This document shows positions 16,251 through 41,308 of a stretch of 55,051 nucleotides of DNA, in pieces (the stretch's first letter is position 1; each line of letters begins with the position of its first letter). This DNA is from a virus (Duplodnaviria > Caudoviricetes). Position numbers and translations under genes: made by a program. The notes beneath the pieces are model-generated. The model was not told the origin of the DNA and ran no database searches. It saw only the letters and a list, made by a program, of their open reading frames with translations. The stretch is from the IMG/VR virus record IMGVR_UViG_3300044262_000024, positions 1 to 55,051 of that record; one strand, 5' to 3'.

Positions 16251-16251
16251 C

Positions 16252-16620: not shown

Positions 16621-16624
16621 CAGC

Positions 16625-16819
16625 ATGATCCGCGTGTCATGCCGGGCTGGACTGGTGCTCCGCAAGTTGCTGGACACGAAAGAAGAAGACGCGGCCATTG
16701 AAACAGTGAAGGCGCGCATGAAGGCAGCGGCAATGCAGATCGCGCTCGACCTACAGCGTGACGGCTATCGTGTCGACCTCGATGTGGCCTATCTGGTGGC
16801 GTTTGAAGAAGGGGAATGA
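16625..16819 (+). CDS. Hypothetical protein
   Basis: 64-aa ORF filling the gap before the integrase. Confidence 0.45.
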   Translation: MIRVSCRAGLVLRKLLDTKEEDAAIETVKARMKAAAMQIALDLQRDGYRVDLDVAYLVAFEEGE

Positions 16820-16840
16820 CCGTCCTGCTAAACTGGCAGG

Positions 16841-23269: not shown

Positions 23270-24078
23270 TGTTCTGCCTCCATTTCCTGTACAAAGTCGG
23301 CGTCAATGGCCGGGGTGGGCGCCAGGGCGAGAATCTGCGCGCGCTGTGCGTCGGTGAGGGTGAATCGGGTCGCCGCCATGTCGGCAAAGGCTTGCGCGGT
23401 CTTCTTGCCGGCGTCGATTGCTGCCTGCCACTTGGGGAACTGCGCTTCAAGTTCGGCCTGGTCACACGGTGGCAGTTCTGCCTTTGCGGCTGGCGTGACT
23501 TCGCCGGTGCTGCGGTCGATGGTGCCCATGTCGCGCACGGTGTAGTCTGCCAATTCCTCTGCACCGCCCAACCCTTTAAGCAGGTCCGAAGCGGCATCGC
23601 GCGCCGCAAACCAGAATGCGCGCCATGCCATCTGCCGCTCCGGGTTCGTCCTCCACGGCCCTTCCTTTCCCCACAATCCGGCCGTCTTGGCGTTGTCGAT
23701 GCAATATGTGCGCTCGACCGGCGGACGGTTGCCGCGCGTGATCTTGCAGCGTGCCCGACCGGACTTCTTGATGATCTCGATGTCGTCTTCTTCGATGACG
23801 CAGCCGGCTGCAAGCAGGATCGCCTTGCCGGCATCGCCGTAGATTCCGGGCTTGCCATTGATGACCGCAATGTTCTGGATGGCGGCCATCGGTTGCAGGC
23901 CAACCTCGTTACCCATCTGGACCGCAATCAGCACATCACCAGGCTTGCCCCGGAAGCTCTTGGGGACAAGCTCGGAGTCGGCCATCATCTTGGCGAAATC
24001 CATAGCTTCAGTAAGGGTGCGCGGGGCCAGCGAAAACGTTTGAGGCATGGCGGGTTTTTGTGCGGCGAGGTCGCTCAT
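23266..24078 (-). CDS. recT: RecT-like single-strand annealing protein
   Basis: SELVPKSFRGKPGDVLIAVQMG.EVGL.PM.AIQNIAVING.P..W..NPERQM.WRA; paired with YqaJ. Confidence 0.85.
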   Translation of the reverse strand: MSDLAAQKPAMPQTFSLAPRTLTEAMDFAKMMADSELVPKSFRGKPGDVLIAVQMGNEVGLQPMAAIQNIAVINGKPGIYGDAGKAILLAAGCVIEEDDIEIIKKSGRARCKITRGNRPPVERTYCIDNAKTAGLWGKEGPWRTNPERQMAWRAFWFAARDAASDLLKGLGGAEELADYTVRDMGTIDRSTGEVTPAAKAELPPCDQAELEAQFPKWQAAIDAGKKTAQAFADMAATRFTLTDAQRAQILALAPTPAIDADFVQEMEAEQ

Positions 24079-24383
24079 TTGGCAAGTCTCCATAAAATGA
24101 CAAAAGCCAGCATCAGCACGGCGGCAGCAATGCCCGCCCAGCCGCTGCGGCTGCGTTGCAGAAAGGTGATGCGGCCAGGTGCCGGCTCGTTGTGACCGAA
24201 CGCCTCGCGGGACGAGCGCGGAAAGCGCGCGGTCAGGTTGTCGTCGGTGCATGCGGTGCCGTCGATCAGGAAGCCAAGCGGCTGCGGACGGCGTGGCTTG
24301 TATCGGTTCGGCGTATTGAGTCCACGTTCAGCCGCGACGATCAACGGGCTGCGAAGCTGGGTCTGCTGTCGAATGGTCTGCAT
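24075..24383 (-). CDS. Hypothetical protein with C-terminal TM
   Basis: RFPRSSREAFG motif and hydrophobic C-terminal helix. Confidence 0.55.
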   Translation of the reverse strand: MQTIRQQTQLRSPLIVAAERGLNTPNRYKPRRPQPLGFLIDGTACTDDNLTARFPRSSREAFGHNEPAPGRITFLQRSRSGWAGIAAAVLMLAFVILWRLAK

Positions 24384-24875: not shown

Positions 24876-25127
24876 TTATTTAGAGCAGGCCAGGAACGGC
24901 TGAGAAAGCTGATCCTCAAGGATGGCGGCTACCCCTACGGCGGCGACTTGATCGCTGGCGAGTTGCCCGGTGCTTCCGAATAGTGGGCGCTCTCCGCGCT
25001 TTTGGATGACGCCGAACACCATCCCGGATATTTTGCCGTCTTTCGCCATTTCCAGCAGCAAGCGCAAGGCGTCGATGGTGTCGTGTTCGTGGAAGTCCAG
25101 CGCGACGAGTTTTGATTTACGAGGCAT
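24876..25127 (-). CDS. Small protein co-transcribed with the repressor
   Basis: MPRKSKLVALDF..; overlaps the cI stop. Confidence 0.65.
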   Translation of the reverse strand: MPRKSKLVALDFHEHDTIDALRLLLEMAKDGKISGMVFGVIQKRGERPLFGSTGQLASDQVAAVGVAAILEDQLSQPFLACSK

Positions 25128-25563
25128 CTTTTTTCTTCCTCGTTGACACGGGGCCATTAAGAAAGCTGAACTCGGTCTTCCGCACGCTGACGACCTTCTC
25201 CGCGCCGAAGTGCTGGGCGGCTTCACGGTTCTTTGCCGCCATCGGGCGCATTTCATCCAGCATGGCCTGCTTTTCGCTAGGCAATAAGTATGCCCAAATC
25301 GCCAGCAAGTCAGCCTCGCCTGAGTAATCGAACGCTTCGCCTATCTGCATAGGCCCTTGACCTGTTTCCAGCCACACCGCCGAGCAGCCTATTTTCTCCT
25401 GCGCAATCAGGATGCCGCCCTTCGACATGCCGCGCTTCTCCCAATTGGCGAGGGTTTGCGGCGACTGGTTCAGGTAGCGGGCGACCTCGGACTGGCCGCG
25501 CCATCCCCGCATGTCCTCCGCTGCCTGGTAGAGCCTTGTCATGGTTGCGTGCATATCCAGCAT
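25117..25563 (-). CDS. CI-like XRE-HTH repressor without a peptidase S24 domain
   Basis: QSEVARYLNQSPQTLANWEKRG..SAVWLETGQGPM; divergent from cro; start may be 25554. Confidence 0.85.
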   Translation of the reverse strand: MLDMHATMTRLYQAAEDMRGWRGQSEVARYLNQSPQTLANWEKRGMSKGGILIAQEKIGCSAVWLETGQGPMQIGEAFDYSGEADLLAIWAYLLPSEKQAMLDEMRPMAAKNREAAQHFGAEKVVSVRKTEFSFLNGPVSTRKKKDAS

Positions 25564-25588
25564 TGTCCTGGCACCGAACAAAATCGGG

Positions 25589-25630
25589 TTCAACAAAGTG
25601 TTTGACTTTCGATTTAACGTGGTGTTAAAT
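25589..25630 (+). promoter_or_regulatory. PR promoter with two 17-bp operators (OR)
   Basis: TTGACT (25602-07)-17 nt-TTAAAT; TTCAACAAAGTGTTTGA (25589-605) and TTTAACGTGGTGTTAAA (25613-29); same 24-bp period as OL. Confidence 0.8.
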
Positions 25631-25636
25631 AAGTGC

Positions 25637-25831
25637 ATGGATACTCCAATCTCAAAAGATAAGGCGCTGATCGAGAAGCTGGGCGGACCCGCAAAGCTGT
25701 CCGAGCTGCTCGGATACAAGAAAAAAGGTGGGCCGCAGCGAGTTAGCAACTGGATGAATCGCGGCATACCGTCAAGGGTGAAGCTCGAACATCCAGAGCT
25801 TTTTCTGTCGGCACACGCGAAAGCCGCATGA
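25637..25831 (+). CDS. Cro-like repressor
   Basis: LIEKLGGPAKLSELLG..QRVSNW..RGIP. Confidence 0.85.
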   Translation: MDTPISKDKALIEKLGGPAKLSELLGYKKKGGPQRVSNWMNRGIPSRVKLEHPELFLSAHAKAA

Positions 25832-25867
25832 CATCGCATGCTCCAGCCCGCTTCGGCGGGCTCCCTC

Positions 25868-29868: not shown

Positions 29869-30239
29869 CCGCCCCCTGGCAGGAAATGCTCACCGAGCAG
29901 CAGCGGAAGATCCTCAACGCTGCCTGCGGCGACCTGGCCGAGCAAATCCGCTGGCACGGCAACCGGCTTTCAAAGGACGATTGGCGCCACCTGATCAGCG
30001 GGACCGTACTCGGCTGGCGGATGATGCCGGCCATCGACCGGGGTGAGGGCGCGCCGGGCTTCATCATGCTGGGCGGCTCGAGCCTGAAACTGACGAAAGA
30101 GCAGTGCATCGACGCCATCACGATGGCCTTCCACATCGGCGACGACCCGAGCAGCCAGGGCCTGAAGTCGCAGCCGGTGCGCTGGTGCGCGGCCGTTTGC
30201 AAGGCTCGGTGGCTGGCTGACGAGGGCATGGCCGCATGA
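29865..30239 (+). CDS. NinB-like protein
   Basis: Q.K.LNA.C.DLA.QI.W.G..L..DDWR..LGGSS. Confidence 0.7.
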   Translation: MTAPWQEMLTEQQRKILNAACGDLAEQIRWHGNRLSKDDWRHLISGTVLGWRMMPAIDRGEGAPGFIMLGGSSLKLTKEQCIDAITMAFHIGDDPSSQGLKSQPVRWCAAVCKARWLADEGMAA

Positions 30240-30541
30240 CCTTCCGCTCGCGCGCCATCCTGAACCTAGCCCACAAGCTGAACCGCTGCCTATGCGGAAA
30301 CTTCAGCCCGGAAGGATTGGAGCCAGCCCATGCAAATTCACAGCTTTACGGCAAGGGAATGGGCGAGAAGGCCGGCGACCAATGGCATGCCGCCATGTGC
30401 CACCAGTGCCACCTCGAGTACGACAGCGGCAAAGGCAGCCGCGAGGAAAAGGAGTGGATGTTTCAGCGCTACCACGTTTGGACGTGGAACCAGTATTTCG
30501 CAAACGGCTGGATCAAGGTCGACAGGGAGGCGGCAAAGTGA
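30236..30541 (+). CDS. Zn-binding nuclease-like nin protein (DUF1364-like)
   Basis: C..AHAN..GKGMG.KA.D..A..CHQCH..YD. Confidence 0.7.
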   Translation: MTFRSRAILNLAHKLNRCLCGNFSPEGLEPAHANSQLYGKGMGEKAGDQWHAAMCHQCHLEYDSGKGSREEKEWMFQRYHVWTWNQYFANGWIKVDREAAK

Positions 30542-30828
30542 AGCCAGACGCCAAAAGCATGGAGCTTATGCGCCGCTTGGCTGCGGTGAGGATCGCTGCA
30601 GCCAATCATTCCAACCGGTTCCGCGAGCTCCTGAAGGAGCGCGCGATCGAGCGGATCAAGGCGCAGCCGTTTTTCCGGCTGAAAGCCGAAGACGAAGGCC
30701 TCGATGTGCATCCGCCGATGGATTTGAGCGCCTACCCGGACAGGACCGAGGTAGTCGTTATTCGCCCCAGCGAGCCGCTTCAGCGGTTCAACTGGCCCGA
30801 TAGCGACGAGCCTTGGTACTGGCCTTGA
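30538..30828 (+). CDS. Hypothetical protein
   Basis: GTG start coupled to the upstream stop; GGAGG SD. Confidence 0.5.
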   Translation: MKPDAKSMELMRRLAAVRIAAANHSNRFRELLKERAIERIKAQPFFRLKAEDEGLDVHPPMDLSAYPDRTEVVVIRPSEPLQRFNWPDSDEPWYWP

Positions 30829-30839
30829 AGCTGCACCGG

Positions 30840-31028
30840 ATGAACCCGCTCGACATCCTGATCGCAGCCGAATCCGCTTCATGCAAAGGCTGCGCCAGGG
30901 AAATGCCAGTCAGGTTCGGGGATGAAATCAAGATGGGATGCACGCAAGGGAGAAAACACGGTGATCGCTGCAAGAAATACCTACCAAACACACGAAAGGG
31001 CGCGAATGCACAATCGGGCAGCAACTGA
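30840..31028 (+). CDS. Cys-rich small protein preceding the Q-like gene
   Basis: NPLDILI..E..SCKGC..C..G..C.KY. Confidence 0.55.
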   Translation: MNPLDILIAAESASCKGCAREMPVRFGDEIKMGCTQGRKHGDRCKKYLPNTRKGANAQSGSN

Positions 31029-31377
31029 GGTTGATTCACTGACCGATGCCGGCATGGCGCGGTTCGAGAACTGGCACGCCTGGGCGGCGGGCGGCGAGAC
31101 TGCCATGGTGATGCGGCACTCTTACCCGCGCCAGGTAGCGGCTTGCGCTCTGTATCGCTCGACCGAGCATTACACGGACGACGAAGCCCCGCAGCTTCCG
31201 ATCGACAAGGAGGACGCCCTGAAGGTCGACCGGGCAATCTGCCTGCTGCCGAATCACCTGAAAACAGCGGTCACCAACAAGTACATGCACCGGCCGGATA
31301 TACGTAATGTCCCTTACGACGTGCTGGATGGCTGGGTTAAACAGGCCGCACGGATGCTGATGGAGCGCTGGCCGTAA
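31006..31377 (+). CDS. Putative Q-like late antiterminator
   Basis: RFENWHAWA..DALKVDRAICLLP..K..V..KY; end of the nin region. Confidence 0.6.
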   Translation: MHNRAATEVDSLTDAGMARFENWHAWAAGGETAMVMRHSYPRQVAACALYRSTEHYTDDEAPQLPIDKEDALKVDRAICLLPNHLKTAVTNKYMHRPDIRNVPYDVLDGWVKQAARMLMERWP

Positions 31378-31433
31378 TTGTTGCCGGACAAGCAGCCCGG
31401 CTTATTGCTGCTGAAAAACTGAAAGGACTTTCT

Positions 31434-31676
31434 ATGCACTACAGAAACGGCCGCGAGGCCAAGAATGGCGACAAGATCGTGCGACTCGAGGGCGGCGTCA
31501 TCGTCGCATTCGGCACGCTGCAGGACGCGACGCCTGGGAATGACTACTGCAACGGCAATATCGTGCACGAAAGCGGGCATTCGACCTATGCCTGCATGTG
31601 TGACTGCCTGCACGTCGACGACGTGGCCGAAGTGCTGGCTGCGCAGGGCTTGGACAAGCGACCCAAAGGCAAGTGA
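31434..31676 (+). CDS. Conserved small phage protein
   Basis: MHYRNGREAKNGDKIV..NDYCNG..CDCLHVDD; AAGGA SD. Confidence 0.75.
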   Translation: MHYRNGREAKNGDKIVRLEGGVIVAFGTLQDATPGNDYCNGNIVHESGHSTYACMCDCLHVDDVAEVLAAQGLDKRPKGK

Positions 31677-31862
31677 TCTTCTGCGTTGCCACTGCGCATG
31701 TTGATGAAGCGCGTCCCGTGAACGGACCACCTATTACGTCCTGGCGCTCATAGGCCGCCTCCGACGCCTTCCCCGGTGTGGACAAAGGGGAGACCGCGGC
31801 CCCAGCGCATGCTGCATGTGCGTAGACGGATGGGGCACCCACCAACCACGAAAGGTAATCAC

Positions 31863-32147
31863 ATGAAAGTATTGACCGTCACCAAAGGCAATGAAACGCG
31901 CCGCTTCGCCATGGACACCGTCCGCTCCCAGCATGTCATCACGATCGATGCCGCGCTCAAACCCGGGCAGGAGGCACCGCACCACCACATCCCCAACCAT
32001 AAACACCTGCTGGTGATCGAGTTGCGCCCGATCAAGTCGCTGGACGGCGAGGGCAAAGGCCAGGTCGTCGACTTCTGCCAGCAGTTCGAGTGGATGTTCG
32101 ACGAGCGCCGCCAGGTCGACGAGGCTGTTACGGTCGACGAGGTATGA
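31863..32147 (+). CDS. Hypothetical protein
   Basis: AAAGGT SD; phage-like codon use. Confidence 0.6.
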   Translation: MKVLTVTKGNETRRFAMDTVRSQHVITIDAALKPGQEAPHHHIPNHKHLLVIELRPIKSLDGEGKGQVVDFCQQFEWMFDERRQVDEAVTVDEV

Positions 32148-32349
32148 GCAACATCAATGAATTGATGTTGCGGCAAGAGGGCGCGGTTGGCGCTGACGTC
32201 GCTCCGGTATGGAAACCTGGCCAACCCGCGAGCGACGCCACCTGTGCAGCCACCGGCGCTGGTGGCGACGTGTTGACCCGAGAGACATCGGCAGCGATGT
32301 ACTAGGGTTTTTGATAGTGCCAGCGGGTGAGCCGGTTTACGCGGGCAGC

Positions 32350-32535
32350 ATGAGCGAACTAGATGCAGAAGAAACCGAATGCGTGCACATGTGCCTTGAT
32401 GATGCGCTTGTGCCGCGTGCAGATGAGAACGGCGCAATATTTTCGCTGTGGGGACGAGTTAAGCGTTTCAAGTACGGCGGGCCAAACGACGACAACGGGA
32501 TGCAATTACCGACCCCAGGCAACGAAGGCGCATAA
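32350..32535 (+). CDS. Hypothetical protein whose stop lies in the first attC-like core
   Basis: ECVHMCLDD..VPR..FSLWGRV; stop TAA within GCATAAC; start uncertain. Confidence 0.5.
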   Translation: MSELDAEETECVHMCLDDALVPRADENGAIFSLWGRVKRFKYGGPNDDNGMQLPTPGNEGA

Positions 32536-32593
32536 CGGCAAAGTTAAGGCCGACGCGCTTTAGCGCGGTCGGGCCTTGAACGTAGAGTTGGGC
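32530..32593 (-). repeat. attC-like site 1 (64 bp)
   Basis: Minus strand GCCCAAC-tctac-GTTCAAGG..CCTTAAC-tttgcc-GTTATGC: canonical R''/5/L''(extra base)/L'/6/R' layout. Confidence 0.88.
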
Positions 32594-32611
32594 AACGAAC
32601 AGGAGCGAAGA

Positions 32612-32845
32612 ATGGAACTGACAGACGTTTTACGAGGGGGCCGCCAATGTGATGAGGACGGCACTGAAATAATCATGAGCCGGGAAGCGTGCGTGGTAGC
32701 AGCAGATTTGATTGAGCGGCAACAGAAGGCACTGGCAACGCTGGCGAAATACTTTACCGGCGGCAACCACATCCAGGTTGACCAGGCGACGATCAAGGCC
32801 GCCGACTTCTGGAGTATTACGGGGCTGTCGGTGCCCAACGCATAG
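32612..32845 (+). CDS. Cassette 1 hypothetical protein
   Basis: AGGAG SD; ends ..VPNA* inside the next site. Confidence 0.7.
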   Translation: MELTDVLRGGRQCDEDGTEIIMSREACVVAADLIERQQKALATLAKYFTGGNHIQVDQATIKAADFWSITGLSVPNA

Positions 32846-32879
32846 TTTAGGCCGCGCCCGCTAGAGCAAAGTGTTGGGC
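32833..32879 (-). repeat. attC-like site 2 (short, degenerate or chimeric)
   Basis: GCCCAAC..CCCGCTAGAGCAAAGT-GTTGGGC; right half nearly identical to site 7. Confidence 0.55.
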
Positions 32880-33031
32880 GCGTAAGTTATTGAAAACACA
32901 GGCGACCTTAAAGAATAGACAGCTGAACTGGGTCTAAAGGTTGACAAATGTTCGAATCAGCAAGAAAGCGAGGTTGACAAAATTCCAGAAGTGCAATGAG
33001 TTAAACGACAGCGGACATAAGAGGAAAGACG

Positions 33032-33307
33032 ATGGAACGAGAAAAGCGGTATTTTGTGATAAAGCTGACCGACGCGGCAAAGTACCTGACGCCAACGCAA
33101 AGTAGCAGGCTGCAAGAAATGGGTGAGCAGATCAACGAACTTCGGGCAGCAGACGGGAAGCCGCCGATGCACGGTGTTTTTGTGGAGCACGACTGGCCGG
33201 AATATGAGCCGACGTGGCAGGCCATTGAACGGCGCATGGACGCGGTGCCGAACGCTGAAATAACCGGGCGCACGCTGGCCCAAAACGAAGCCGAACCGCT
33301 CGATTAA
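33032..33307 (+). CDS. Cassette 2 conserved phage protein
   Basis: MEREKRYFVIKL.D..VEHDWPEYEPTW.AIE.R; reads through site 3. Confidence 0.75.
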   Translation: MEREKRYFVIKLTDAAKYLTPTQSSRLQEMGEQINELRAADGKPPMHGVFVEHDWPEYEPTWQAIERRMDAVPNAEITGRTLAQNEAEPLD

Positions 33308-33317
33308 CGTGTTAGCC
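33247..33317 (-). repeat. attC-like site 3 (degenerate centre)
   Basis: GCCGAAC-gctgaa-ATAACCGG..CCGCTCGATT-aacgt-GTTAGCC. Confidence 0.6.
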
Positions 33318-33358
33318 GACTCACGTTAAAGGTCGGCACTTGTTGGAGATAAAACCCA

Positions 33359-33505
33359 ATGGAAACTGTAATCAACGAAGCAATCAAAGCACTTGCCGAA
33401 AAGTCCAAGGCAGCACCGGCCCACGAAGTCATGCACCTTACGCAAGCCGCGCTGAATCTGGCGCACACGCTACAGGTCAAGAAGCAGACCGAAGCCACGA
33501 AGTAA
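33359..33505 (+). CDS. Cassette 3 48-aa helical protein (not in the ORF track)
   Basis: GGAG SD; METVINEAIKALAEKSKAAPAHEVMHLTQAALNLAHTLQVKKQTEATK. Confidence 0.65.
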   Translation: METVINEAIKALAEKSKAAPAHEVMHLTQAALNLAHTLQVKKQTEATK

Positions 33506-33536
33506 TGAACAGTCGCCACTGGCTGATGCTGGTGGT

Positions 33537-33600
33537 GGCTAACGATTAAATTAACAGGCTGGCCGCTTGCGGACAGTCCCGCTAGAACGCCGTGTTAGGC
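33537..33600 (-). repeat. attC-like site 4 (64 bp)
   Basis: GGCTAAC..GGCTGGCCGC-tt-GCGGACAGTCC..GTTAGGC. Confidence 0.7.
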
Positions 33601-33622
33601 GTGAACCTGAAAGGAGAATGAA

Positions 33623-33820
33623 ATGTTTGGAATTATCGGTAGCTTGACTAAGGCAGTTGTCGGCGTGGTTGTTGAAGCCCCGATTGCAATTGCGGCAGAC
33701 GTGATGACGCTCGGAGGAACGCTTACCGACAAAAACCAGTGCGGCGGCGAAACCTACACGGAAACCGCATTGAAAGGCGTGATGAAGAACTTGGAAAATG
33801 CGACCAAGCCCGACGCCTAA
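33623..33820 (+). CDS. Cassette 4 conserved small phage protein
   Basis: AAGGAG SD; SL.KA.VG.V.E.P.A..ADV.TLGG.LTD; stop in GCCTAAC. Confidence 0.75.
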   Translation: MFGIIGSLTKAVVGVVVEAPIAIAADVMTLGGTLTDKNQCGGETYTETALKGVMKNLENATKPDA

Positions 33821-33958
33821 CAAACAGGTAAGGGGCTGCCCGCACAACGAACAGGAGCAAGAGCGATGACCATAGAGACACCACAAACCGAAAACGAAGC
33901 CGCTGGCGGGCAGTCCCGCGCAGCCGAAGGCGGAGCGAACTTGACCGCCGTGTTGGGC
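33815..33958 (-). repeat. attC-like site 5 (144 bp) with the next gene's RBS and start codon in its loop
   Basis: GCCTAAC-aaacag-GTAAGGGGCTGCCCG..CGGGCAGTCCC..CTTGAC-cgccgt-GTTGGGC. Confidence 0.7.
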
Positions 33959-34156
33959 GCACTGGCTGACCAGTTTGAGTGCCACGCGCTCAGCCGGAGC
34001 ATTGACGATATTGAGGCGGCAGGCCGGGCCATGCGTGATGCCAAGGCCGAGGTTGAGCGGCTGCGCGCATCGCTGGCAGAGGCACTGGAGGTAGGGAGCC
34101 ACCTGATGTCTGCGGCAGCCTACGAGCGGGCACGAAAGCTGGTGCCCAACGGCTGA
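33866..34156 (+). CDS. Cassette 5 hypothetical protein
   Basis: AGGAG SD inside site 5; ends ..VPNG*. Confidence 0.65.
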   Translation: MTIETPQTENEAAGGQSRAAEGGANLTAVLGALADQFECHALSRSIDDIEAAGRAMRDAKAEVERLRASLAEALEVGSHLMSAAAYERARKLVPNG

Positions 34157-34207
34157 ATTGAGGGGCCGCGCGCTTTTGCGCGGTCCCGCTCGGATGATGT
34201 GTTGTGC
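34144..34207 (-). repeat. attC-like site 6 (64 bp)
   Basis: GCCCAAC-ggctga-ATTGAGGGGCCGCGCGC-tttt-GCGCGGTCCCGCTCGGAT-gatgt-GTTGTGC. Confidence 0.85.
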
Positions 34208-34228
34208 CCCTGCCAAACGGAGAGAGAA

Positions 34229-34513
34229 ATGGACTTGGTTTTACCACTGAAGGGCGAGTATTTCGACCAGATAAAGGCCGGGGTAAAGATTTACGAATAC
34301 CGGCTTTGCACGCTGTATTGGAAAAAGCGGATCGAGGGCCGGAGATACGACAACGTGATTTTGACGCGCGGGTACCCGAAGCGTACAGACACCGAGCGCC
34401 GCCTGGTGGTGCCGTGGAGGGGGTGGCGAATGATGGTGATTTCACACCCCCATTTCGGGCCTGACCCGGTATCGGTGTACGCGATAGAGGTGGGGCACAA
34501 CGGCAACGCTTAG
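34229..34513 (+). CDS. Cassette 6 ASCH-domain protein
   Basis: L.LPLKGEYFDQIKAG.K..EYRL...YW.KR..GR.YD....GYP. Confidence 0.85.
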   Translation: MDLVLPLKGEYFDQIKAGVKIYEYRLCTLYWKKRIEGRRYDNVILTRGYPKRTDTERRLVVPWRGWRMMVISHPHFGPDPVSVYAIEVGHNGNA

Positions 34514-34556
34514 GGGACGCCGCTTGCGGCGGTCCCGCTAGAGCAAAGTGTTGTGC
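34495..34556 (-). repeat. attC-like site 7 (62 bp)
   Basis: GCACAAC-ggcaac-GCTTAGGGGACGCCGC-tt-GCGGCGGTCCCGCTAGAGC-aaagt-GTTGTGC. Confidence 0.85.
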
Positions 34557-34573
34557 GACTGGACGGAGAGAAC

Positions 34574-34804
34574 ATGAGAAAGACAAGATTTACAGCAACA
34601 ATGGCCGCGCTGGCTGTGGCATTCGGGACGGAAGCCGAAATGTTTGACCTTACCGCGCGGCGCGGAAAGACGCTTCCTTCGTACTACCCGAAGTGCACCG
34701 ATAGCGAGAGCGCGGCACGGCTGGCAGCGGCGGAGGAAAAGCGAAAGCGCCGAGCCAAGAAGTTGAAGGCGCACAACGGCAAAGATCAGGCCGACGCCGC
34801 GTAG
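34574..34804 (+). CDS. Cassette 7 basic protein
   Basis: GGAGAG SD; RLAAAEEKRKRRA; reads into site 8. Confidence 0.65.
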   Translation: MRKTRFTATMAALAVAFGTEAEMFDLTARRGKTLPSYYPKCTDSESAARLAAAEEKRKRRAKKLKAHNGKDQADAA

Positions 34805-34835
34805 CGGCGGTCGCGCCTGGATCGATGTGTTAGAG
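34771..34835 (-). repeat. attC-like site 8 (65 bp)
   Basis: GCACAAC-ggcaaa-GATCAGGCCGACGCCGC-gta-GCGGCGGTCGCGCCTGGATC-gatgt-GTTAGAG. Confidence 0.85.
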
Positions 34836-34858
34836 CGCTGGATCAACTAGGAGAGAAC

Positions 34859-35071
34859 ATGACTTTCGATGAGCACTGGCAAAAAGTGAGAAACGCAAAC
34901 CCGAAATTGGCGGATGACCACTTTGCAAGAGCGCTGGCCGAAGCGGCATGGGAAGCCGCAACCAAGGCAGAGCGCGAGGCGTGCTGCCGAGCGATAGATG
35001 CAATAGACGATGGCGAAGCGCCAGAATACAGAGCGTGCCAAGAGGCGATCATGGCGTGCTCTAACGGCTGA
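34859..35071 (+). CDS. Cassette 8 hypothetical protein
   Basis: AGGAGAG SD; AWEAA..AEREAC..I motif common in phage small proteins; ends SNG*. Confidence 0.7.
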   Translation: MTFDEHWQKVRNANPKLADDHFARALAEAAWEAATKAEREACCRAIDAIDDGEAPEYRACQEAIMACSNG

Positions 35072-35122
35072 ATTCAGGGGCGGGCGGCTTTTCGCCCGTC
35101 CCGCTGGAATGACGTGTTATGC
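35059..35122 (-). repeat. attC-like site 9 (64 bp)
   Basis: CTCTAAC-ggctga-ATTCAGGGGCGGGCG..CGCCCGTCCCGCTGGAAT-gacgt-GTTATGC. Confidence 0.85.
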
Positions 35123-35142
35123 CACAAATTTAAGAGAGAACG

Positions 35143-35460
35143 ATGAACGAAAAAAGCTGTGTTGGCTGCAAATATCTTTACACCCAAGGGCACGGTTACA
35201 GCAACTACACCTGGGAGGAAACCCGCGTTGAATGCGCCAAAGATAAAAACCCGAACCTACCAAGCGATGAGCCTTACGACTGGAACGAGAAAGACGACAA
35301 CTGGCCCGCCACAAACGCCAGCAGGTGCGAGCTTTACGCCACGGGAGAGAAGGTTTGCCTCGATGTGGATGGAGAGAATGGCCCGGCAGATGAAACGACC
35401 GACGAGGAAGCGATTGCCGCGATTTGCGAGCACAGCGGGCGTGGGCGGAATGGGGCATAA
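35143..35460 (+). CDS. Cassette 9 Cys-rich acidic protein
   Basis: SCVGCKYL..GYSNYT..C; stop in GCATAAC. Confidence 0.7.
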   Translation: MNEKSCVGCKYLYTQGHGYSNYTWEETRVECAKDKNPNLPSDEPYDWNEKDDNWPATNASRCELYATGEKVCLDVDGENGPADETTDEEAIAAICEHSGRGRNGA

Positions 35461-35519
35461 CGGCTGAATTGAGGGGCCGCGCGCTTTTTGCGCGGTCCCG
35501 CTCGGATGATGTGTTGTGC
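35455..35519 (-). repeat. attC-like site 10 (65 bp), near-identical to site 6
   Basis: Differs from 34144-34207 only in the left core and one extra loop T. Confidence 0.88.
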
Positions 35520-35539
35520 CCAGGAGATTGAGGAAACCG

Positions 35540-36136
35540 ATGACCGTAGCCGTACTTTTTGCCAGAGCAGACAGCAACTACAAGGCGCTGGACTGCGACG
35601 TGTGGGACGAGCAGCGCGACGCCCGCCGCTGGCCGGGGGGCTGCCCGGTTGTGGCGCACCCGCCATGCAGGGCGTGGGGCAGGCTGCGGCACTTCGCAAA
35701 GCCACGGGACGACGAGAAAGACCTTGCGCGGTTTGCTGTGGCACAGGTGCGAAAGTGGGGCGGGGTTTTGGAACACCCGGAGAGCTCGCAATTGTGGCAA
35801 GACCAAGGACTGCCGCCGCCAGGTAAGAAGGACGATTTTGGGGGGTGGACTTTGCCAGTGCATCAATTCTGGTGGGGCCACCGGGCGCAGAAAAAGACGT
35901 GGCTTTATGTGGTTGGGTGCGAACCGAGAGAACTGCCGCCGATGCCTTTGCGCCTTGGTGTAAGCGATTGCGTGATACGGCTGGACAAGCGCAGGCCGGA
36001 CGGAACGCACATTAGGAAAGGCGACCACGACTGGCGAGAGCCACTAGGGCCAGCCGAAAGAGAACACACGCCCCCGGCGCTGGCGGAATGGCTGATTGAG
36101 CTGGCAGCACGCTGCAAGGGGCACAACCAGGATTAG
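35540..36136 (+). CDS. Cassette 10 minimal cytosine-C5 methyltransferase-like protein
   Basis: VAVLF..; VAHPPCRAW (PC motif); VLEHP..S; Q.WWGH...K.TWL. Confidence 0.6.
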   Translation: MTVAVLFARADSNYKALDCDVWDEQRDARRWPGGCPVVAHPPCRAWGRLRHFAKPRDDEKDLARFAVAQVRKWGGVLEHPESSQLWQDQGLPPPGKKDDFGGWTLPVHQFWWGHRAQKKTWLYVVGCEPRELPPMPLRLGVSDCVIRLDKRRPDGTHIRKGDHDWREPLGPAEREHTPPALAEWLIELAARCKGHNQD

Positions 36137-36210
36137 CCTCCACGTCCGATAACCTCGCCCACGCCAGATTATCAGACACGGCGCATAAGCTGGAAACTTG
36201 TCAGATAACG
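36121..36210 (-). other. attI-like terminal half-site with repeated GTCnGATAA(C/T) boxes
   Basis: Core GCACAAC without a partner hairpin; boxes at 36144-53, 36168-77 (inverted) and 36200-09. Confidence 0.5.
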
Positions 36211-36309
36211 TGCCTAGCACTGGCGCGGCTTGCGGCGGTGAAACTGGCAGGGAATGGCTTGATAACGAAACCGGAAAGGCGTCACGAAGGCCCATGTACC
36301 ATAAACCAC

Positions 36310-36363
36310 TTGACGCGAGACTCTTTCTTCTTGAACATCGAGGCTGTGGGGCAAGGTGCGCCC
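36310..36363 (+). promoter_or_regulatory. Putative late promoter with GGGCAAnnTGCGCCC element (copy 1)
   Basis: TTGACG-17 nt-GAACAT, then GGGCAAGGTGCGCCC at 36349-63. Confidence 0.55.
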
Positions 36364-36399
36364 AAAGCGCACGCCCTACAGGCAACACGGGTGGTGATT

Positions 36400-36745
36400 G
36401 GTGTTGTCCCCAGACGAGTCCGTGAAAGCCGGGCAGGAGGCGAAAGCCGACGACGAAACAGCTATGGGGGCGCGCCAGTCACCAGCCGTGTTGGTGAATG
36501 CGTAGGCTGATGCGCAGCGACAGCAAGCCGGCGCCGATCTAAAACAGCAATGCCGGGGCGAAAGCCTTGGAGGAAGGGGCTGATCGGACCCACCTGACCC
36601 CGCTGGGGACATGGTTGTATGCCAAAGCCGGAGATCGCAGCACCGGCCACCAGCAAGCCACCCTTCGGGGTGGCTTTTTTATTGCACATCTGAAAGTCGG
36701 GCTTACCGCAGATGAGGCCAACGACGGGCGAGAGCCCAGCAGGCA
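36400..36745 (+). ncRNA. Structured non-coding late leader (hammerhead-core-like motifs and a multi-stem element)
   Basis: No convincing ORF; GNRA-capped stems; CAGAnGA-stem-GA(A/G)A motifs; stem TTGGTG..CACCAG. Confidence 0.4.
36656..36682 (+). terminator. Rho-independent terminator
   Basis: AGCCACCC-ttcg-GGGTGGCT followed by a T run. Confidence 0.85.
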
Positions 36746-36809
36746 GCGGGTAGCTTGAGGCTGGCACCCTCTTAGTCGAGTCACTTAGCCATACACACAC
36801 GAAGCATCG

Positions 36810-36837
36810 GCCCGCCCATTGAGGCGGGCTTTTTTAT
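36810..36837 (+). terminator. Rho-independent terminator before terS
   Basis: GCCCGCC-cattga-GGCGGGC-TTTTTT. Confidence 0.8.
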
Positions 36838-36850
36838 GCCTGGAGAAACC

Positions 36851-37453
36851 ATGCCGGAACAGAAGAAAGCCCCGGATTGGGATCGCATCGAGATTGACTA
36901 TCGCGCCGGCATCAAGACGCTGCGCGAGATCGCTGACGAGCATGGCATTACCCATGGCGCCATCAACAAGCGCGCCAAGCGTGACGGCTGGGTCCGCGAC
37001 CTGGCTGAGAAGATCCGCGCCAAAGCGAAAGAGAAGGTATCCAAGAGCGAGGTATCCAAAGAGGTATCCAGTGAGCGCCTGGCTACCGAGCGGGAGATTA
37101 TCGAGGTCGAATCCGAGGTTCAGGCCCGCATCGAGATCGCACATCGCCGCGACATCACCAAGGCCAGGTCGTTGGCGATGAGCCTGCTGGATGAGCTCGG
37201 GCATCAGGTTGCAAACCCTGAACTGTACGAGCGGCTTGGCGAGTTGTTGCGCAAGGAAGACGACAAAGGCGTCGACAGGCTGAACGACATCTACCACAAG
37301 GTTGTCGGGTTCGGCGGACGCTCCACGAACATGAAGCAACTGGCTGACACCTTGAAGGTGTTGGTTGACCTTGAGCGCAAGGTCTACGGCATTGAATCAC
37401 GCGCAGCTACAGGCGGCGGCCTTGAAGAACTGCTTGGTAAGCTGGATGAATGA
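36851..37453 (+). CDS. Terminase small subunit
   Basis: PDWDRIE.DYRAG..TLREIA..HGITHGAI.KRAKR.GW.RDL HTH; upstream of terL. Confidence 0.85.
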   Translation: MPEQKKAPDWDRIEIDYRAGIKTLREIADEHGITHGAINKRAKRDGWVRDLAEKIRAKAKEKVSKSEVSKEVSSERLATEREIIEVESEVQARIEIAHRRDITKARSLAMSLLDELGHQVANPELYERLGELLRKEDDKGVDRLNDIYHKVVGFGGRSTNMKQLADTLKVLVDLERKVYGIESRAATGGGLEELLGKLDE

Positions 37454-38951
37454 CAACGAAAAGCTGCGCCGGCTTCGGCTGTTGCGCACGCAGTTCAAGC
37501 AGTACGCGCCGCTGGCGCTGCGCATACGGGACAAGGCTGGCCGCATCGTGCCGTTTGCGCTCAACAAGGCACAGGAAGCGCTCGACACGGCGATCAATGA
37601 CCAGCTTGCAACGATCGGGCGGGTCCGGATCATTGTGTTGAAAGGGCGCCAGCAGGGAATCAGTACCTATACCGAGGGGCGGTTCTACTGGCGCACATCG
37701 ATGCAGTTCGGTAAGACGGCCTTCATCCTCACTCATGAGGACCGTGCGACACAAAACCTGTTCGGCATGGCGAAGCTCTATCACGACAGCGTGCCGCCAG
37801 CCTTGAAGCCGAACACCAGCGCGGCAAACGCCAACGAATTGCAGTTTGATCGCCTGGCCAGTCGCTATGCGGTCGGCACGGCGCGCACCAAGGGTACCGG
37901 GCGCGGCTTCACGGTGCACTACTTCCACGGCTCGGAGGTGGCGTTTTGGGCGAATGCGGCCGAGCACTTGGCTGGTTTGGGGCAGGCGATCCCGGACGAG
38001 CCCGGCACCGAGGTAATCCTGGAAAGCACGGCCAACGGTGTCGGCAACGTGTTCTACAGCATGGTGCAGGACGCGCAACGCGGGATTGGTGATTACAAGC
38101 TGGTATTCATTCCGTGGTTCTGGCAACCGGAATACCGCTCTGACGTGCCGAGCGACTTCGTGATGGACGCCGAAGAGGCGGCCTATGCGGAACGCTACGG
38201 GCTGGACGCCGGGCAGATGGTATGGCGCCGGCGCAAGATCCAGACGGATTTCAGGGGCGACGTGGCGCTGTTCGATCAGGAATACCCAGCAACCCCGGCC
38301 CTGGCGTTCCGCGCGGCGGCCAGCGGGTCGTTTATTGGCCTCGATTTGGTCGACGCCGGAATGGACACAACGGTCACAGAAGACGCCTTGGCCCCCAAGA
38401 TCATGGGCGTGGACCCGGCTGAATATGGCGATGACGCCACGGCAATCGTGAAGCGTCTTGGGCGCAAGGTTTACCCGATCGAGCGCCATTACAAGCGTGG
38501 TCCGATGGAGGTCGCCGGGATCGTGGCGCGACGCGCCGACGAGTGGGGCCCCGACGCCATCAATGTGGACTGCACGGGCATCGGCTCCGGTGTGGCGGAT
38601 CGCCTGATCGAGCTTGGCTACCCGGTCAACCGTGTGCATTTCGGCGAGAGCGCGATCGAAAAAGACCAGTACGGCATCCGCAAGGATGAAATGTGGGGCG
38701 AAATGAAGCGCTGGCTCGAAGACCTGCCGAACGAACTTCCGCGTGATGATGTGCTGGCCGCTGATCTGGTGGGCCCGCAGTACACCTACGACAGTTCCAG
38801 GCGCCTGCGCATCGAGAGCAAGGAAAAGATGAAAGCGCGCGGCATCCAGTCTCCGGACAGCGGGGACGCGCTGGCGCTGACGTTTGCCGTGCGTATCAAT
38901 CGGAATGAAGAGCGCGCCCCATCGAGACGATATAACTGGAGGGTTGGTTGA
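37446..38951 (+). CDS. Terminase large subunit
   Basis: LKGRQQGIST Walker A, HGSEVAFW, LESTANG, nuclease MGVDPA..GDD, SPDSGDAL. Confidence 0.95.
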   Translation: MNDNEKLRRLRLLRTQFKQYAPLALRIRDKAGRIVPFALNKAQEALDTAINDQLATIGRVRIIVLKGRQQGISTYTEGRFYWRTSMQFGKTAFILTHEDRATQNLFGMAKLYHDSVPPALKPNTSAANANELQFDRLASRYAVGTARTKGTGRGFTVHYFHGSEVAFWANAAEHLAGLGQAIPDEPGTEVILESTANGVGNVFYSMVQDAQRGIGDYKLVFIPWFWQPEYRSDVPSDFVMDAEEAAYAERYGLDAGQMVWRRRKIQTDFRGDVALFDQEYPATPALAFRAAASGSFIGLDLVDAGMDTTVTEDALAPKIMGVDPAEYGDDATAIVKRLGRKVYPIERHYKRGPMEVAGIVARRADEWGPDAINVDCTGIGSGVADRLIELGYPVNRVHFGESAIEKDQYGIRKDEMWGEMKRWLEDLPNELPRDDVLAADLVGPQYTYDSSRRLRIESKEKMKARGIQSPDSGDALALTFAVRINRNEERAPSRRYNWRVG

Positions 38952-39160
38952 TGCCTAAGAAGGCAAGGGCTTCCATGCTCACAAAATCCGAGATAGACCG
39001 TCGAGCGAAGTCGTGCGGGCTCAAGCCGACAGACGAGTTGCGAGAGTTTGCCAGGAACATTTTTTTGTTCGGGCTACGCACCGCACATGCCGATGCAGTG
39101 ATGGCGTGCACATCGATCGAGGCTGAAATCAGCCTCAACATCAAGAAGGGCGGTGTTTAA
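38951..39160 (+). CDS. Hypothetical protein
   Basis: Fills the terL-portal gap. Confidence 0.45.
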   Translation: MPKKARASMLTKSEIDRRAKSCGLKPTDELREFARNIFLFGLRTAHADAVMACTSIEAEISLNIKKGGV

Positions 39161-41308
39161 ATGGCCGACAGCAACGCCGTAAAGGAACTGACGCTATCCG
39201 AGTGGCAGGACATTCTCGGGGAGATCCAGCAGCAGCCGGCCTGGCGCCGCGACGCCGACACCGAGGCCGACTACTACGACGGCAATCAACTGGATTCCGA
39301 GACGCTGCAGGCCATGCAAGAGCTTGGCATGGCGCCGATCATCGAGAACCTGATCGCGCCGTCGATCGATTCTGTGCTCGGTATGGAGGCGAAGAACCGC
39401 CTCGACTGGCGCGTGACCAGCCAGGGCAGCAACAAGCACGCCGAGATCGCCGAGGCGATCAACGAAAAGCTGAACGAAGCCGAGCGCGAGTCGAAGGCTG
39501 ACCGCGCGTGCGCCGACGCCTACGCGGCTCAGTGCAAGGTGGGCGCCGGCTGGGTGACGGTCGGCCATGAGCATGATCCGTTCAAGTACCTGCACCGCGC
39601 CGAGTATGTGCACCGCAACGAAGTGTTCTGGGACTGGAATTCGCGCGAGCCGGACCTGTCCGACGCCCGCTATCTGGTCAGGAAGCGCTGGCATGACGTC
39701 GATGTACTGCAGGTGGCTTTCCCTAAGCAGGCCGATCTAATCAAGAACGCCGGCTACGGCTGGGCGACGACCGACATTGAGACCATGCTCGACGGCGGCC
39801 AGTCGACGGGCTTGAGCCGCGGCTACGCCGAGGAACGGGCATGGACACTGCTGGAGCACGAATGGCGCCAGCTTTACCGCCGCCGCCTGTGTCTGTCCGA
39901 GGTCTGGTATCGGCGCTGGGTGCGTATCAAGGTGCTGCGCGCGCCGGATGGCCGTGTGGTCGAGTTTGACCCCGATAACTTCGACCATCAGGTCGCGGTG
40001 CAGTCCGGCATGGTCCAGCTACAGGAGGCGATGACGTCGAAGGTGCGGCTGTCGTGGTGGATCGGCCCGCACAAACTGGCGGACATCCCCAACCCATACG
40101 GCCACGGCAAGATCCCCTACGTGCCGTTCTTCGGCAAGCGCGAAGACCTGACCGGCGTGCCGTATGGCCTGATCCGGCCGATGAAGAGCCTGCAGGACGA
40201 GATCAACGCCCGCAATACCAAGATGCAGTGGCTGCTGGTGGCCAAGCGGGTAACCATGACCCGGGGCGTCGCCGACGTCAACACGACCCGCAACGAGGCG
40301 GCGCGTCCGGACGCGGTGCACGTGCTGGACCCCGCCAAGATGCGCGATGGCGGCGTGTTCAAGGTCGAGTCCGACTTCACCCTCAACCAGCAGCAGTATC
40401 AGGCGCTGGTGGACAAGCGCGAGTCGCTGAAGAACGTCGCCGGCATCTACAAGGCGTTCGAGGGGCAGAACGGCAACGCCACGTCGGGGCGCGCGATCGA
40501 CAGCCTGGTCGACCAGTCGACGCAGACGCTGGCCGAGATCAACGACAATTTCCGCTTTGCCCGGGCGGCGGTGGGCGACCTGCTGATGTCGAACGTGACC
40601 GAAGAGATTGGCCAGATGGAGACCGATGTCGAGGTCAAGGGAGCCTTCGCCACCGGCGCCAAGGTTATCAAGCTGAACCAGCGCGCCCAGGATGAGCAGG
40701 GCCGTGAATTCCTCAACAACGACCTGCAGCGCGCCCGCCTCAAGGTGGCGCTGTCCGATGTGCCGTCGACAGCCAGCTACCGCAAGCAGCGCTTCATGCT
40801 GCTGTCCGAGCTTGGCAAGAGCCTGCCGCCGAACCTGCAGGCGATCATGTTGCCCTACATCGTGGCCGCATCCGACGAGCCCGAGCGCGACGTGATCGTG
40901 AAGGAACTGCGCAAGGCGCTGGGGCAGGCCAGCAACGAGCCGGCGAAGACGCCAGAAGAGCAGGCCGAGCGGGATGCGGCCGATGCGCAGGCGCGTGAAA
41001 TGGCCGCATTGCAGAAGCGCCTGGCTGACATGCAGTTCCGCGAGCTCGCGGCCAAGGTCGAGAAGATGGAGGCGGAGACCGACAAGCTGCTGCGCGAAAT
41101 CCATAAGCCCGTCGCCGTCGAGGTCGCCGAGATCAATGCCGATAGCCGCAAGGACCTGGCCGCCATGAACCACGGTGCCGCGACCGAGAGCCGGCTGCAG
41201 ACGGCGGCCATTGCGCAACTGACCAACGAGCGACAGGAAGAAGCCGGCGAGCACAACGACAGCCCAGCCGAAGAGGCGCGAGAAAAAACGCTTGAAACAT
41301 CCGAATAG
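39161..41308 (+). CDS. Portal protein (podovirus type)
   Basis: 715 aa after terL; YYDGNQ..NLIAP.ID.VLG.E..PYVPF..YGLIR..QDEIN..SGRAI. Confidence 0.9.
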   Translation: MADSNAVKELTLSEWQDILGEIQQQPAWRRDADTEADYYDGNQLDSETLQAMQELGMAPIIENLIAPSIDSVLGMEAKNRLDWRVTSQGSNKHAEIAEAINEKLNEAERESKADRACADAYAAQCKVGAGWVTVGHEHDPFKYLHRAEYVHRNEVFWDWNSREPDLSDARYLVRKRWHDVDVLQVAFPKQADLIKNAGYGWATTDIETMLDGGQSTGLSRGYAEERAWTLLEHEWRQLYRRRLCLSEVWYRRWVRIKVLRAPDGRVVEFDPDNFDHQVAVQSGMVQLQEAMTSKVRLSWWIGPHKLADIPNPYGHGKIPYVPFFGKREDLTGVPYGLIRPMKSLQDEINARNTKMQWLLVAKRVTMTRGVADVNTTRNEAARPDAVHVLDPAKMRDGGVFKVESDFTLNQQQYQALVDKRESLKNVAGIYKAFEGQNGNATSGRAIDSLVDQSTQTLAEINDNFRFARAAVGDLLMSNVTEEIGQMETDVEVKGAFATGAKVIKLNQRAQDEQGREFLNNDLQRARLKVALSDVPSTASYRKQRFMLLSELGKSLPPNLQAIMLPYIVAASDEPERDVIVKELRKALGQASNEPAKTPEEQAERDAADAQAREMAALQKRLADMQFRELAAKVEKMEAETDKLLREIHKPVAVEVAEINADSRKDLAAMNHGAATESRLQTAAIAQLTNERQEEAGEHNDSPAEEAREKTLETSE

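Follow-up and report, generated by a model that had tools for sequence, protein, structure and literature searches.

The stretch of DNA analyzed here (55,051 nt, called the window throughout) is one whole IMG/VR virus record, IMGVR_UViG_3300044262_000024, which is estimated to be 94% complete and whose PHROG matches give a temperate, lambda-like gene layout. At positions 32530-36130 it carries ten attC-like sites, each followed by one + strand open reading frame (ORF), and this region is very probably a cluster of attC sites lacking an integron integrase (CALIN): ten mobile cassettes lying in the rightward early operon of the phage, with the integron integrase (IntI) acting in trans. The array seems to belong to a widespread and apparently new family of phage and prophage integrons that have an IntI of their own, and the usual polarity of site and ORF is reversed in it.

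The components of the array are given below with scores from a covariance model (R1) trained on six sites of the window and 14 sites from IMG/VR, where a pattern scan gave 25 loci, with the whole site visible by eye in 17. Lengths given for cores refer to uninterrupted complementarity between the GTT core that precedes an ORF and the AAC core that follows it; SD stands for Shine-Dalgarno.

32209-32535, + strand: phage ORF c0 (108 aa), not a cassette; no Pfam or PHROG match
32530-32595, + strand: site E1; RYYYAAC, 6 nt, stem with 3 bulges on the 3' arm, 5 nt, GTTGGGC; R1 58.4 bits (training set)
32612-32845, + strand: cassette ORF c1 (77 aa); SD-like motif; flanking cores 8 nt
32833-32881, + strand: site E2, truncated to 49 nt; R1 35.6 bits, E 3e-7; outside the training set
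33032-33307, + strand: cassette ORF c2 (91 aa); phrog_7810, E 2.9e-22; 150-nt leader
33247-33319, + strand: site E3, degenerate, overlapping the 3' end of c2; R1 24.8 bits, E 4e-4; outside the training set
33359-33505, + strand: cassette ORF c3 (48 aa); GGAG ahead of ATG; cores GTTAGCC/GGCTAAC, 7 nt
33537-33602, + strand: site E4, weak stem; R1 63.5 bits (training set); fold -6.1 kcal/mol
33623-33820, + strand: cassette ORF c4 (65 aa); phrog_33676, E 4e-9; cores 9 nt; stop codon TAA inside the R box
~33815-33958, + strand: site E5, long; arms 33827-33843 and 33905-33945; loop of ~60 nt
33866-34156, + strand: cassette ORF c5 (96 aa), starting in the E5 loop; cores GTTGGGC/GCCCAAC, 7 nt
34144-34209, + strand: site E6, nearly identical to E10; R1 71.9 bits
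34229-34513, + strand: cassette ORF c6 (94 aa); phrog_625, E 3.4e-34; homologous cassette in viral locus L024
34495-34558, + strand: site E7; R1 71.8 bits; 6/5-nt spacers, 3 bulges on the 3' arm
34574-34804, + strand: cassette ORF c7 (76 aa); extends 27 nt beyond AAC into E8
34771-34837, + strand: site E8; R1 54.6 bits; recognized also by its fold
34859-35071, + strand: cassette ORF c8 (70 aa); flanking cores GTTAGAGC/GCTCTAAC, 8 nt
35059-35124, + strand: site E9; R1 71.7 bits
35143-35460, + strand: cassette ORF c9 (105 aa), Cys-rich; no family match; flanking cores 8 nt
35455-35521, + strand: site E10; R1 68.4 bits; outside the training set but nearly identical to E6
35540-36136, + strand: cassette ORF c10 (198 aa); phrog_12600 (function not known), E 1.2e-77
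36121-36127, + strand: terminal half-site GCACAAC; right end of the array, no hairpin beyond

A core scan finds AAC and GTT in all ten sites, as inverted R''/R' cores of the form RYYYAAC ... GTTRRRY. Folding gives well-formed hairpins of 64-67 nt for seven sites (E1, E4, E6-E10), E2 being truncated, E3 degenerate and E5 long-looped; the ten attC-like palindromes reported in the initial annotation of this DNA thus stand as ten sites with AAC/GTT cores, of which only seven are well formed. The complementary runs across ORFs c1-c10 are 8, 3, 7, 9, 7, 10, 8, 8, 8 and 9 nt (mean 7.7), against a mean of 3.87 for non-cognate core pairs, and the observed sum was reached in none of 100,000 permutations; R''/R' runs inside one hairpin are 3, 7, 3, 5, 3, 4, 7, 3, 4 and 3 (range 3-7 nt). 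The short run at c2 (3 nt) is due to a 1-nt insertion in its AAC core (CCCAAAAC). The eight core pairs listed in the initial annotation are all present where it had placed them, its claim that complementarity holds across each ORF rather than within a site is borne out by the permutations, and the 5/6-bp spacers and extrahelical bases that it described are real by folding. E5 was recognized by eye and by folding, R1 giving no match there: its direct repeats D4 and D9 correspond to the 3' half seen in other sites, the fold pairs both arms and R boxes, and the loop contains the SD motif and ATG of c5. Long site loops with an SD motif and a start codon are seen at 33815-33958 of the window and in two IntI-bearing viral loci described below (L004:6453-6544 and L149:7245-7330), and at these sites the N-terminal codons traverse the attC 3' arm and the GTT core.

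The ORFs are organized as single-gene cassettes, as originally proposed, although the reversed site-ORF polarity discussed below had been missed. An SD-like motif lies no more than 20 nt ahead of ATG in nine of the ten, and the start codon lies 24-30 nt past the GTT core in seven. Seven also run in frame through AAC and stop 6-27 nt beyond the crossover, so that their last codons and stop come from the neighboring cassette (for c10, from phage DNA). The leader of c2 (32882-33031) contains two copies of GGTTGACAAA, where the promoter scan made no call. PHROG families match four of the ten cassette ORFs (c2, c4, c6 and c10), and Pfam gave nothing convincing for ten of the 11 ORFs c0-c10, the other being c3 with a weak ZapA match below the cut-off (E 0.0045). 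Two functional labels attached earlier find no support at family thresholds: "ASCH" for c6 rests on a sub-threshold Pfam match (E 0.077, 14.1 bits against a cut-off of 21.2), and "MTase-like" for c10 has no family support, the protein matching phrog_12600 only.

The anatomy of the sites was compared with a reference attC, the site downstream of aadA1 in plasmid R100 (class 1, In2), as read from the sequence. Read along the coding (top) strand of aadA1, this site shows a 5-nt spacer, one arm carrying two additional bases, a second arm free of them and a spacer of 6 nt; the bottom strand therefore reads 6 nt, clean arm, arm with two bulges, 5 nt (6/5, 0/2). This bottom-strand layout is that of the + strand sites of the window, whose spacers measure 6 and 5 nt and whose 2-3 bulges are confined to the 3' arm: by folding, E1, E7, E8 and E9 have 0/3 bulges with 6/5 spacers, and E6 and E10 have 0/2 bulges. 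Features common to these sites and the class 1 aadA1 site are thus the R and L boxes, spacers of 6/5 nt and a pair of extrahelical bases in one of the arms, but the R100 coding strand is the top strand, whereas the coding strand of the window has bottom-strand geometry.

Model R1 leads to the same relationship. Across its 20-site alignment AAC and GTT are invariant, and compensatory changes are present in six of the 13 pairs predicted. In 50 kb of R100 it matches nothing but the attC of aadA1, which it places opposite to the aadA1 coding strand (38.6 bits, E 4e-8). Window sites outside its training set (E10, E2 and E3) are detected as well, and control phage DNA taken from the surroundings of small-terminase relatives gave no match in 1,233,911 + 728,713 bases (1.96 Mb). 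Because a phage-trained model detects the R100 attC but nothing in control DNA, the window sites are taken on sequence and predicted structure to be homologous to attC, and R1 to be specific. With nine model matches plus E5, and no IntI in the record, the array is a CALIN as usually defined (at least two attC sites without IntI). It is not a complete integron, as there is no intI and the sequence that follows c10, compared by eye, is unlike the attI of L004 and L149, where AAC is followed by TTAAATTC...

Hairpins that separate each ORF from the next on the transcribed sense strand could also be RNA elements (serving in processing or stability, or as weak terminators) or homology anchors for RecE/RecT recombination, all the more since the phage encodes RecE-like and RecT-like proteins (22034-24252) and attC sites are themselves thought to be weak terminators (main text of PMC9892861). 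The scan for promoters and terminators inside the array gave nothing above chance, however (9 terminators against 8.1 expected, for the whole scanned region), and the asymmetric 6/5-nt spacers and one-sided bulges match features by which IntI selects its strand. The family is, moreover, physically linked to IntI and attI, as described below. Homologous recombination within 65-nt repeats would in addition scatter crossovers and lose the cognate R-box halves, and would not put junctions at AAC, where they are in fact located; such an origin of the hairpins is therefore regarded as exceedingly improbable.

The location of these junctions, which defines the mobile unit of the proposed CALIN, was obtained by cutting the viral arrays into site-gap-site units. 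Among 173 units, 41 pairs of homologous gaps were found in different contexts, many of them representing duplicate loci (L150/L152, L167/L168) or tandem copies within L008. In pairs with different neighbors it is the upstream site, not the downstream one, that accompanies the ORF, with one exception (last line):

Window c6 and L024: upstream site 98% identical, downstream site 69%
L014 and L001: upstream site 92%, downstream site 59%
L150 u1 and L151 u1: upstream site 100%, downstream site 74%
L150 u4 and L151 u4: upstream site 96%, downstream site 66%
L150 u3 and L151 u2: upstream site 94%, downstream site 86%
L150 u0 and L146 u0: upstream site 74%, downstream site 61%
L008 internal copies: upstream sites 93-96%, downstream sites 61-65%
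L150 u5 and L151 u5, reverse of the trend: upstream site 66%, downstream site 72%

Base by base, the identity of shared cassettes extends from AAC of the upstream site to AAC or AACG of the next site, and the flanks are unrelated on both sides. Junctions at AAC place the crossover where integron integrases cut, between the second A and the C on the bottom strand. The mobile unit is thus a site with its downstream ORF, and not an ORF with its downstream site; written out, the cassette consists of C, a 6-nt spacer, an imperfect hairpin, a 5-nt spacer, GTTRRRY, a ribosome-binding site, the ORF and RYYYAA. Both ends of the array fit this unit, for there are ten site-ORF pairs followed by a bare half-site, and c0 lacks an upstream partner core: its 3' end (GCGCATAAC) is the left R-box half of the first site, and upstream of it there is neither a matching GTTATGCGC core nor an R1 match. 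The earlier conclusion that this is an integron-type array with cassettes that move accordingly gains from both the attC homology and the change of neighbors exactly at the AAC/GTT core. From the anatomy and the junctions, an integron integrase would be expected to excise the cassettes as circles and to reinsert them, cutting between A and C of AAC. At L008:626-1963, in a provirus record whose IntI is in pieces with stops, five tandem copies of one 316-nt cassette are found, four of them full-length and 88.9-91.7% identical and the fifth matching over 159-160 nt only.

The strand with bottom-strand geometry carries all ten ORFs of the window, and the canonical arrangement of a top-strand ORF with attC downstream of it is not found; the coding strand is thus predicted to fold like the recombinogenic bottom strand of a classical attC, with the site upstream of the ORF. 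For comparison, polarity was scored gap by gap, a gap being assigned to a strand when the longest ORF there had 1.3 times or more the length of the longest ORF on the opposite strand and took up 60% or more of the gap. In bacterial arrays (32 genome loci with at least three sites, 105 gaps) the ORF is on the same strand as the site in three gaps, on the opposite strand in 64 and unclear in 38, and four of ten opposite-strand ORFs carry Pfam domains typical of cassettes (GNAT, FMN reductase, GTPase, NERD). The viral loci of the first scan give 28 same, 6 opposite and 21 unclear (28/6 versus 3/64, Fisher p = 7e-16). For the IntI-linked viral loci the corresponding figures are 36, 18 and 22, with ten of the 18 opposite gaps coming from the provirus record L166, which resembles an ordinary chromosomal integron. 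Two gaps of the window were scored opposite by the ORF-length rule owing to long antisense ORFs, and were overridden by the PHROG match of c4 and the SD-like motifs. Some IntI-linked arrays (L150, L152 and L170) are of mixed polarity, as in L150 with the order SSOSOO (S, same; O, opposite); one IntI thus seems to handle both polarities, and since the two can share one array the pools are not strictly separate.

The bacterial loci come from a scan of 185,579 species genomes, which gave 107 stretches, 80 of them taken as loci; in these 80, R1 finds 203 sites, many in arrays. The loci belong mostly to Burkholderiales and Nitrosomonadales in the wide sense (Thiobacillus, Gallionella, Sideroxydans, Azonexus, Polaromonas), with Acidithiobacillus and Methylococcaceae also represented, and in four of five such genomes there is an IntI 59-65% identical to the phage IntI (one with an internal stop). 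The sedentary chromosomal integrons concerned (Thiobacillus, Gallionella, Azonexus, Acidithiobacillus and relatives, Proteobacteria of soil and freshwater) have the same attC family in the same polarity relative to intI. Their ORFs are on the top strand ahead of attC and encode bacterial cargo (GNAT, FMN reductase, NERD), however, whereas in the phage arrays the bottom strand carries the ORFs, which follow attC and are directed towards attI and intI. As for the host, the portal protein of the window phage has matches (E <= 1e-20) in seven of 401 genomes of the order to which Thiobacillus belongs, the best three at 43-51% identity; a betaproteobacterial host would fit these data, which are not specific for one.

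The shared site family raises the question of whether the window merely holds a passive piece of a host chromosomal integron, acquired through imprecise excision or illegitimate recombination. Its sites are of the family found in chromosomal arrays of Betaproteobacteria, Acidithiobacillus and Methylococcaceae, and captures of this sort are described for Vibrio anguillarum phages in the main text of Qi et al. 2023 (PMC9892861). A piece of such an array would nevertheless be expected to have its ORFs on the strand opposite the sites (3/64/38 in the 105 bacterial gaps), not ten of ten on the site strand; the cargo of the window matches phage families, the array lies inside an early operon, ~14 kb from the serine integrase and not at a prophage end, and both array ends fit the unit of site and downstream ORF. 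Passive capture is therefore considered very unlikely.

A possible source of integrase for the CALIN is offered by relatives in which sites of this family adjoin IntI and attI. The pattern matches came from 19 viral records, and in one of these, L004, an integron integrase is encoded in full (TIGR02249 score 474.7 bits, cut-off 265); its alignment with IntI1 extends over 328 residues at 58% identity and contains one gap, of four residues. The gene order in L004, which is clearly phage DNA, is baseplate J, P2-type tail protein I, Mtd-like tail fibre, Avd and a truncated reverse transcriptase, then four cassettes (one with a Dam-type methyltransferase), an attI-like site, intI and a large serine recombinase; site E9 of the window is 93% identical over 58 nt to the attC that adjoins IntI in L004. 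The reverse-transcriptase ORF of this diversity-generating retroelement (L004:4847-5340) is only 147 aa long, covers positions 84-223 of a 1040-position PHROG profile and ends inside the first attC of the array, which may have inserted into the reverse-transcriptase gene or replaced its 3' part.

A search with the L004 IntI gave 33 viral loci at 57-100% identity, including two in records with direct terminal repeats and seven in records rated 100% complete. In the 32 loci other than L004 all 100 R1 matches are on the intI strand and 97 are upstream of intI, the three exceptions being in L143; this is the geometry of attC and intI1 in R100. L149, which has terminal repeats, contains an HNH endonuclease, a PAPS-reductase-like cassette, a phrog_12600 cassette adjoining attI, IntI, a second tyrosine integrase and a tail protein; its junction at attI is common to L004, and its attI-proximal cassette (L149:7029-7940) is 37% identical to window c10, of the same family. 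A prophage-borne integron (L342, G052:C52:4000-23900) is present in the genome of the isolate Thiobacillus denitrificans RG, in the order minor tail protein, replication initiator, Ant anti-repressor, four sites with two DNA methyltransferase cassettes (on the intI strand), IntI (15378-16409) and phage tyrosine integrase (16543-17520). The same genome has a separate array, L035, of the usual bacterial polarity. In L004, L149 and L342 alike, the cassettes, attI and intI are just upstream of the phage's own integrase, and phage-type cargo is co-oriented with the phage genes. Arrays built like that of the window occur in 13 further viral loci with at least two model matches, some in terminal-repeat records.

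When same-strand cassette ORFs of the window and of the viral arrays were compared with PHROG (88 ORFs, leaving out L166, L008 and the duplicates L152 and L167), matches to 54 families were obtained at E <= 1e-5. Families of DNA methyltransferases recur most often: of the 25 families listed 11 belong to them, each having no more than four members (these figures being members per family, not ORFs with a match), and further cargo includes a Mom-like modification protein, DHH phosphoesterases and RNase H.

The setting of the array in the phage genome is as follows, assignments being by PHROG match except for the terminator-like hairpins (terminator scan):

Starting at 15097: endolysin
16841-18379, + strand: large serine integrase (phrog_95, E 2.3e-48), the sole site-specific recombinase in the window
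22034-24252, leftward: RecE-like and RecT-like genes
25117-25839, leftward: repressor-like gene
27689, 28504 and 29865, rightward: replication initiator, DnaB helicase and NinB
36655-36830, + strand: two strong hairpins resembling terminators, separating the array from the small terminase gene
36836, 37365, 39161 and 43333: small terminase, large terminase, portal and major head protein

NinB is followed by small genes and then by the array, which forms the end of the rightward early operon, before the terminase genes. No tyrosine recombinase or IntI candidate was found in the whole record with TIGR02249, a model that also detects ordinary tyrosine recombinases (matches in all 14 control genomes); the absence of an integrase of the array's own and the presence of the serine integrase as only recombinase, both claimed initially, are thus correct. 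With no IntI gene in the window, the enzyme would have to be supplied in trans, and a co-resident phage or prophage with an IntI-bearing form of the element, or a chromosomal integron of the host, would be able to provide it. The trans-acting IntI and the phage cassette pool proposed initially agree with these results, IntI being encoded in other phages of this site family and in candidate host genomes. Expression of the cassettes would occur by read-through from the phage operon and not from an integron Pc promoter. Several GATAAC/TTATC words, with an inverted pair at ~36150-36175, are found directly after the array (36140-36300); this stretch, unlike the attI of L004 and L149, may be a packaging or regulatory site, and the ~700 nt between array and small terminase gene hold no convincing ORF. 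No tRNA or tmRNA genes are present in the window, and a single + strand ORF of 3951 aa at 2549-14404 presumably encodes a giant virion or ejection protein. Megablast of window positions 30000-40000 against 50,697 phage records gave no match.

Assembled contigs, not raw reads, of four metagenome runs bear on the integrity of the array. The sediment run X1, possibly the source sample, contains 0.79 of sampled words of the window; its unitigs show no differences to the window, yet each hairpin interrupts them. Three other runs, each from a different study (soil, groundwater and landfill), contain pieces of c6, c7 and c10 at ~88-92% identity that end at cassette borders (e.g., 34199-34501), and the hairpins occur there at high depth with other flanks. 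No RNA datasets containing the window sequence are listed. Fifteen listed joints were considered as excision products and rejected, as they lie between hairpin repeats with sides of 21-38 nt.

The breaks in X1, the high depth of the hairpins with other flanks in the three further metagenomes and the near identity of E6 and E10 are what would be seen if the array or its cassette order were an assembly artefact, foreign integron cassettes having been joined through the repeated hairpins. Both borders between array and phage are spanned without differences by X1 contigs, however, one of 12,751 nt running from upstream phage DNA into E1 and c1 and one of 1,881 nt from E10 through c10 into downstream phage DNA, although X1 is not independent evidence if it is the source sample. 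Apart from E6/E10, the hairpins differ enough for 150-nt reads to span them, and arrays of the same build occur in 13 other viral loci, terminal-repeat records included; an artefact appears highly improbable.

Several points weigh against a functional CALIN served in trans. Three of the ten sites (E2, E3 and E5) are degenerate or atypical and may be inactive, the array then being partly fossil. That IntI acts in trans is an assumption, as the window has none. Recombination is predicted, the joints in assembled contigs lying in short-sided repeats, and the internal order of the cassettes rests on metagenome assembly with X1 unitigs that break at hairpins. A search through the small terminase gave no close relative of this phage: identity does not exceed 61% among 80 loci from IMG/VR or 64% among 80 from metagenomes, and attC-like sites are absent from all of these loci.

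Integron components in phages are already in print, which corrects the initial description of integrons as mainly chromosomal or plasmid-borne. In 10,705 phage genomes three complete integrons, one In0 and 17 CALINs were found, and five of six phage attC sites tested recombine with attI1 under IntI1 (Qi et al., 2023; PMC9892861, main text). The phage CALINs described there likewise consist of attC sites and single-gene cassettes without IntI, and DNA methyltransferases recur in their cargo, but they have 2-3 sites each in the figures of that paper as against ten cassettes in the window, whose site family is common to many uncultured phages and has a cognate phage-borne IntI. Other temperate phages with integron parts in the same text are P1 and prophages of Vibrio and Shewanella; these are, respectively, class 1 mosaics, captured pieces of host chromosomal integrons, and host-type IntI with attI. 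Cassettes with bottom-strand ORFs, or an IntI beside the phage integrase in Betaproteobacteria-type phages, are not mentioned in the main text of PMC9892861, whose supplements may list more. A Burkholderia prophage paper of 2026 reports a search for integrons that gave none. A literature search on reversed polarity or phage integrons returned only Qi et al. (2023) on the subject, and both the reversed polarity and the phage-borne IntI family seem undescribed so far. The 58% identity of the phage IntI to IntI1 implies that standard attC x attI assays should work, and the T. denitrificans RG prophage would offer a culturable system for experiments.

Integrons are viewed as bacterial stores and shufflers of accessory genes, and lately as banks of anti-phage defence. 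The present results suggest that temperate phages of Betaproteobacteria and their neighbors use integron machinery for accessory genes of their own, with the cassettes reversed so that phage transcription, and not Pc, expresses them. A stronger proposal, to which we give even credence, is that of a phage-specific integron, in which a pool of opposite polarity is expressed by read-through, moved by a phage IntI located beside the phage integrase, loaded with counter-defence cargo and insulated from the bacterial pool. On this proposal, the methyltransferase and Mom-like cargo would mirror the anti-phage defence cassettes of bacterial integrons. If it is true, reversed polarity would silence a phage cassette in a bacterial integron and a bacterial cassette in a phage, so that a single recombinase would serve both while expression remained insulated. 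The use of integron machinery by temperate phages, if it holds, would also provide a mechanism for the fast turnover of small "moron" genes in phage genomes, and a direct route of exchange between phage and host integrons.

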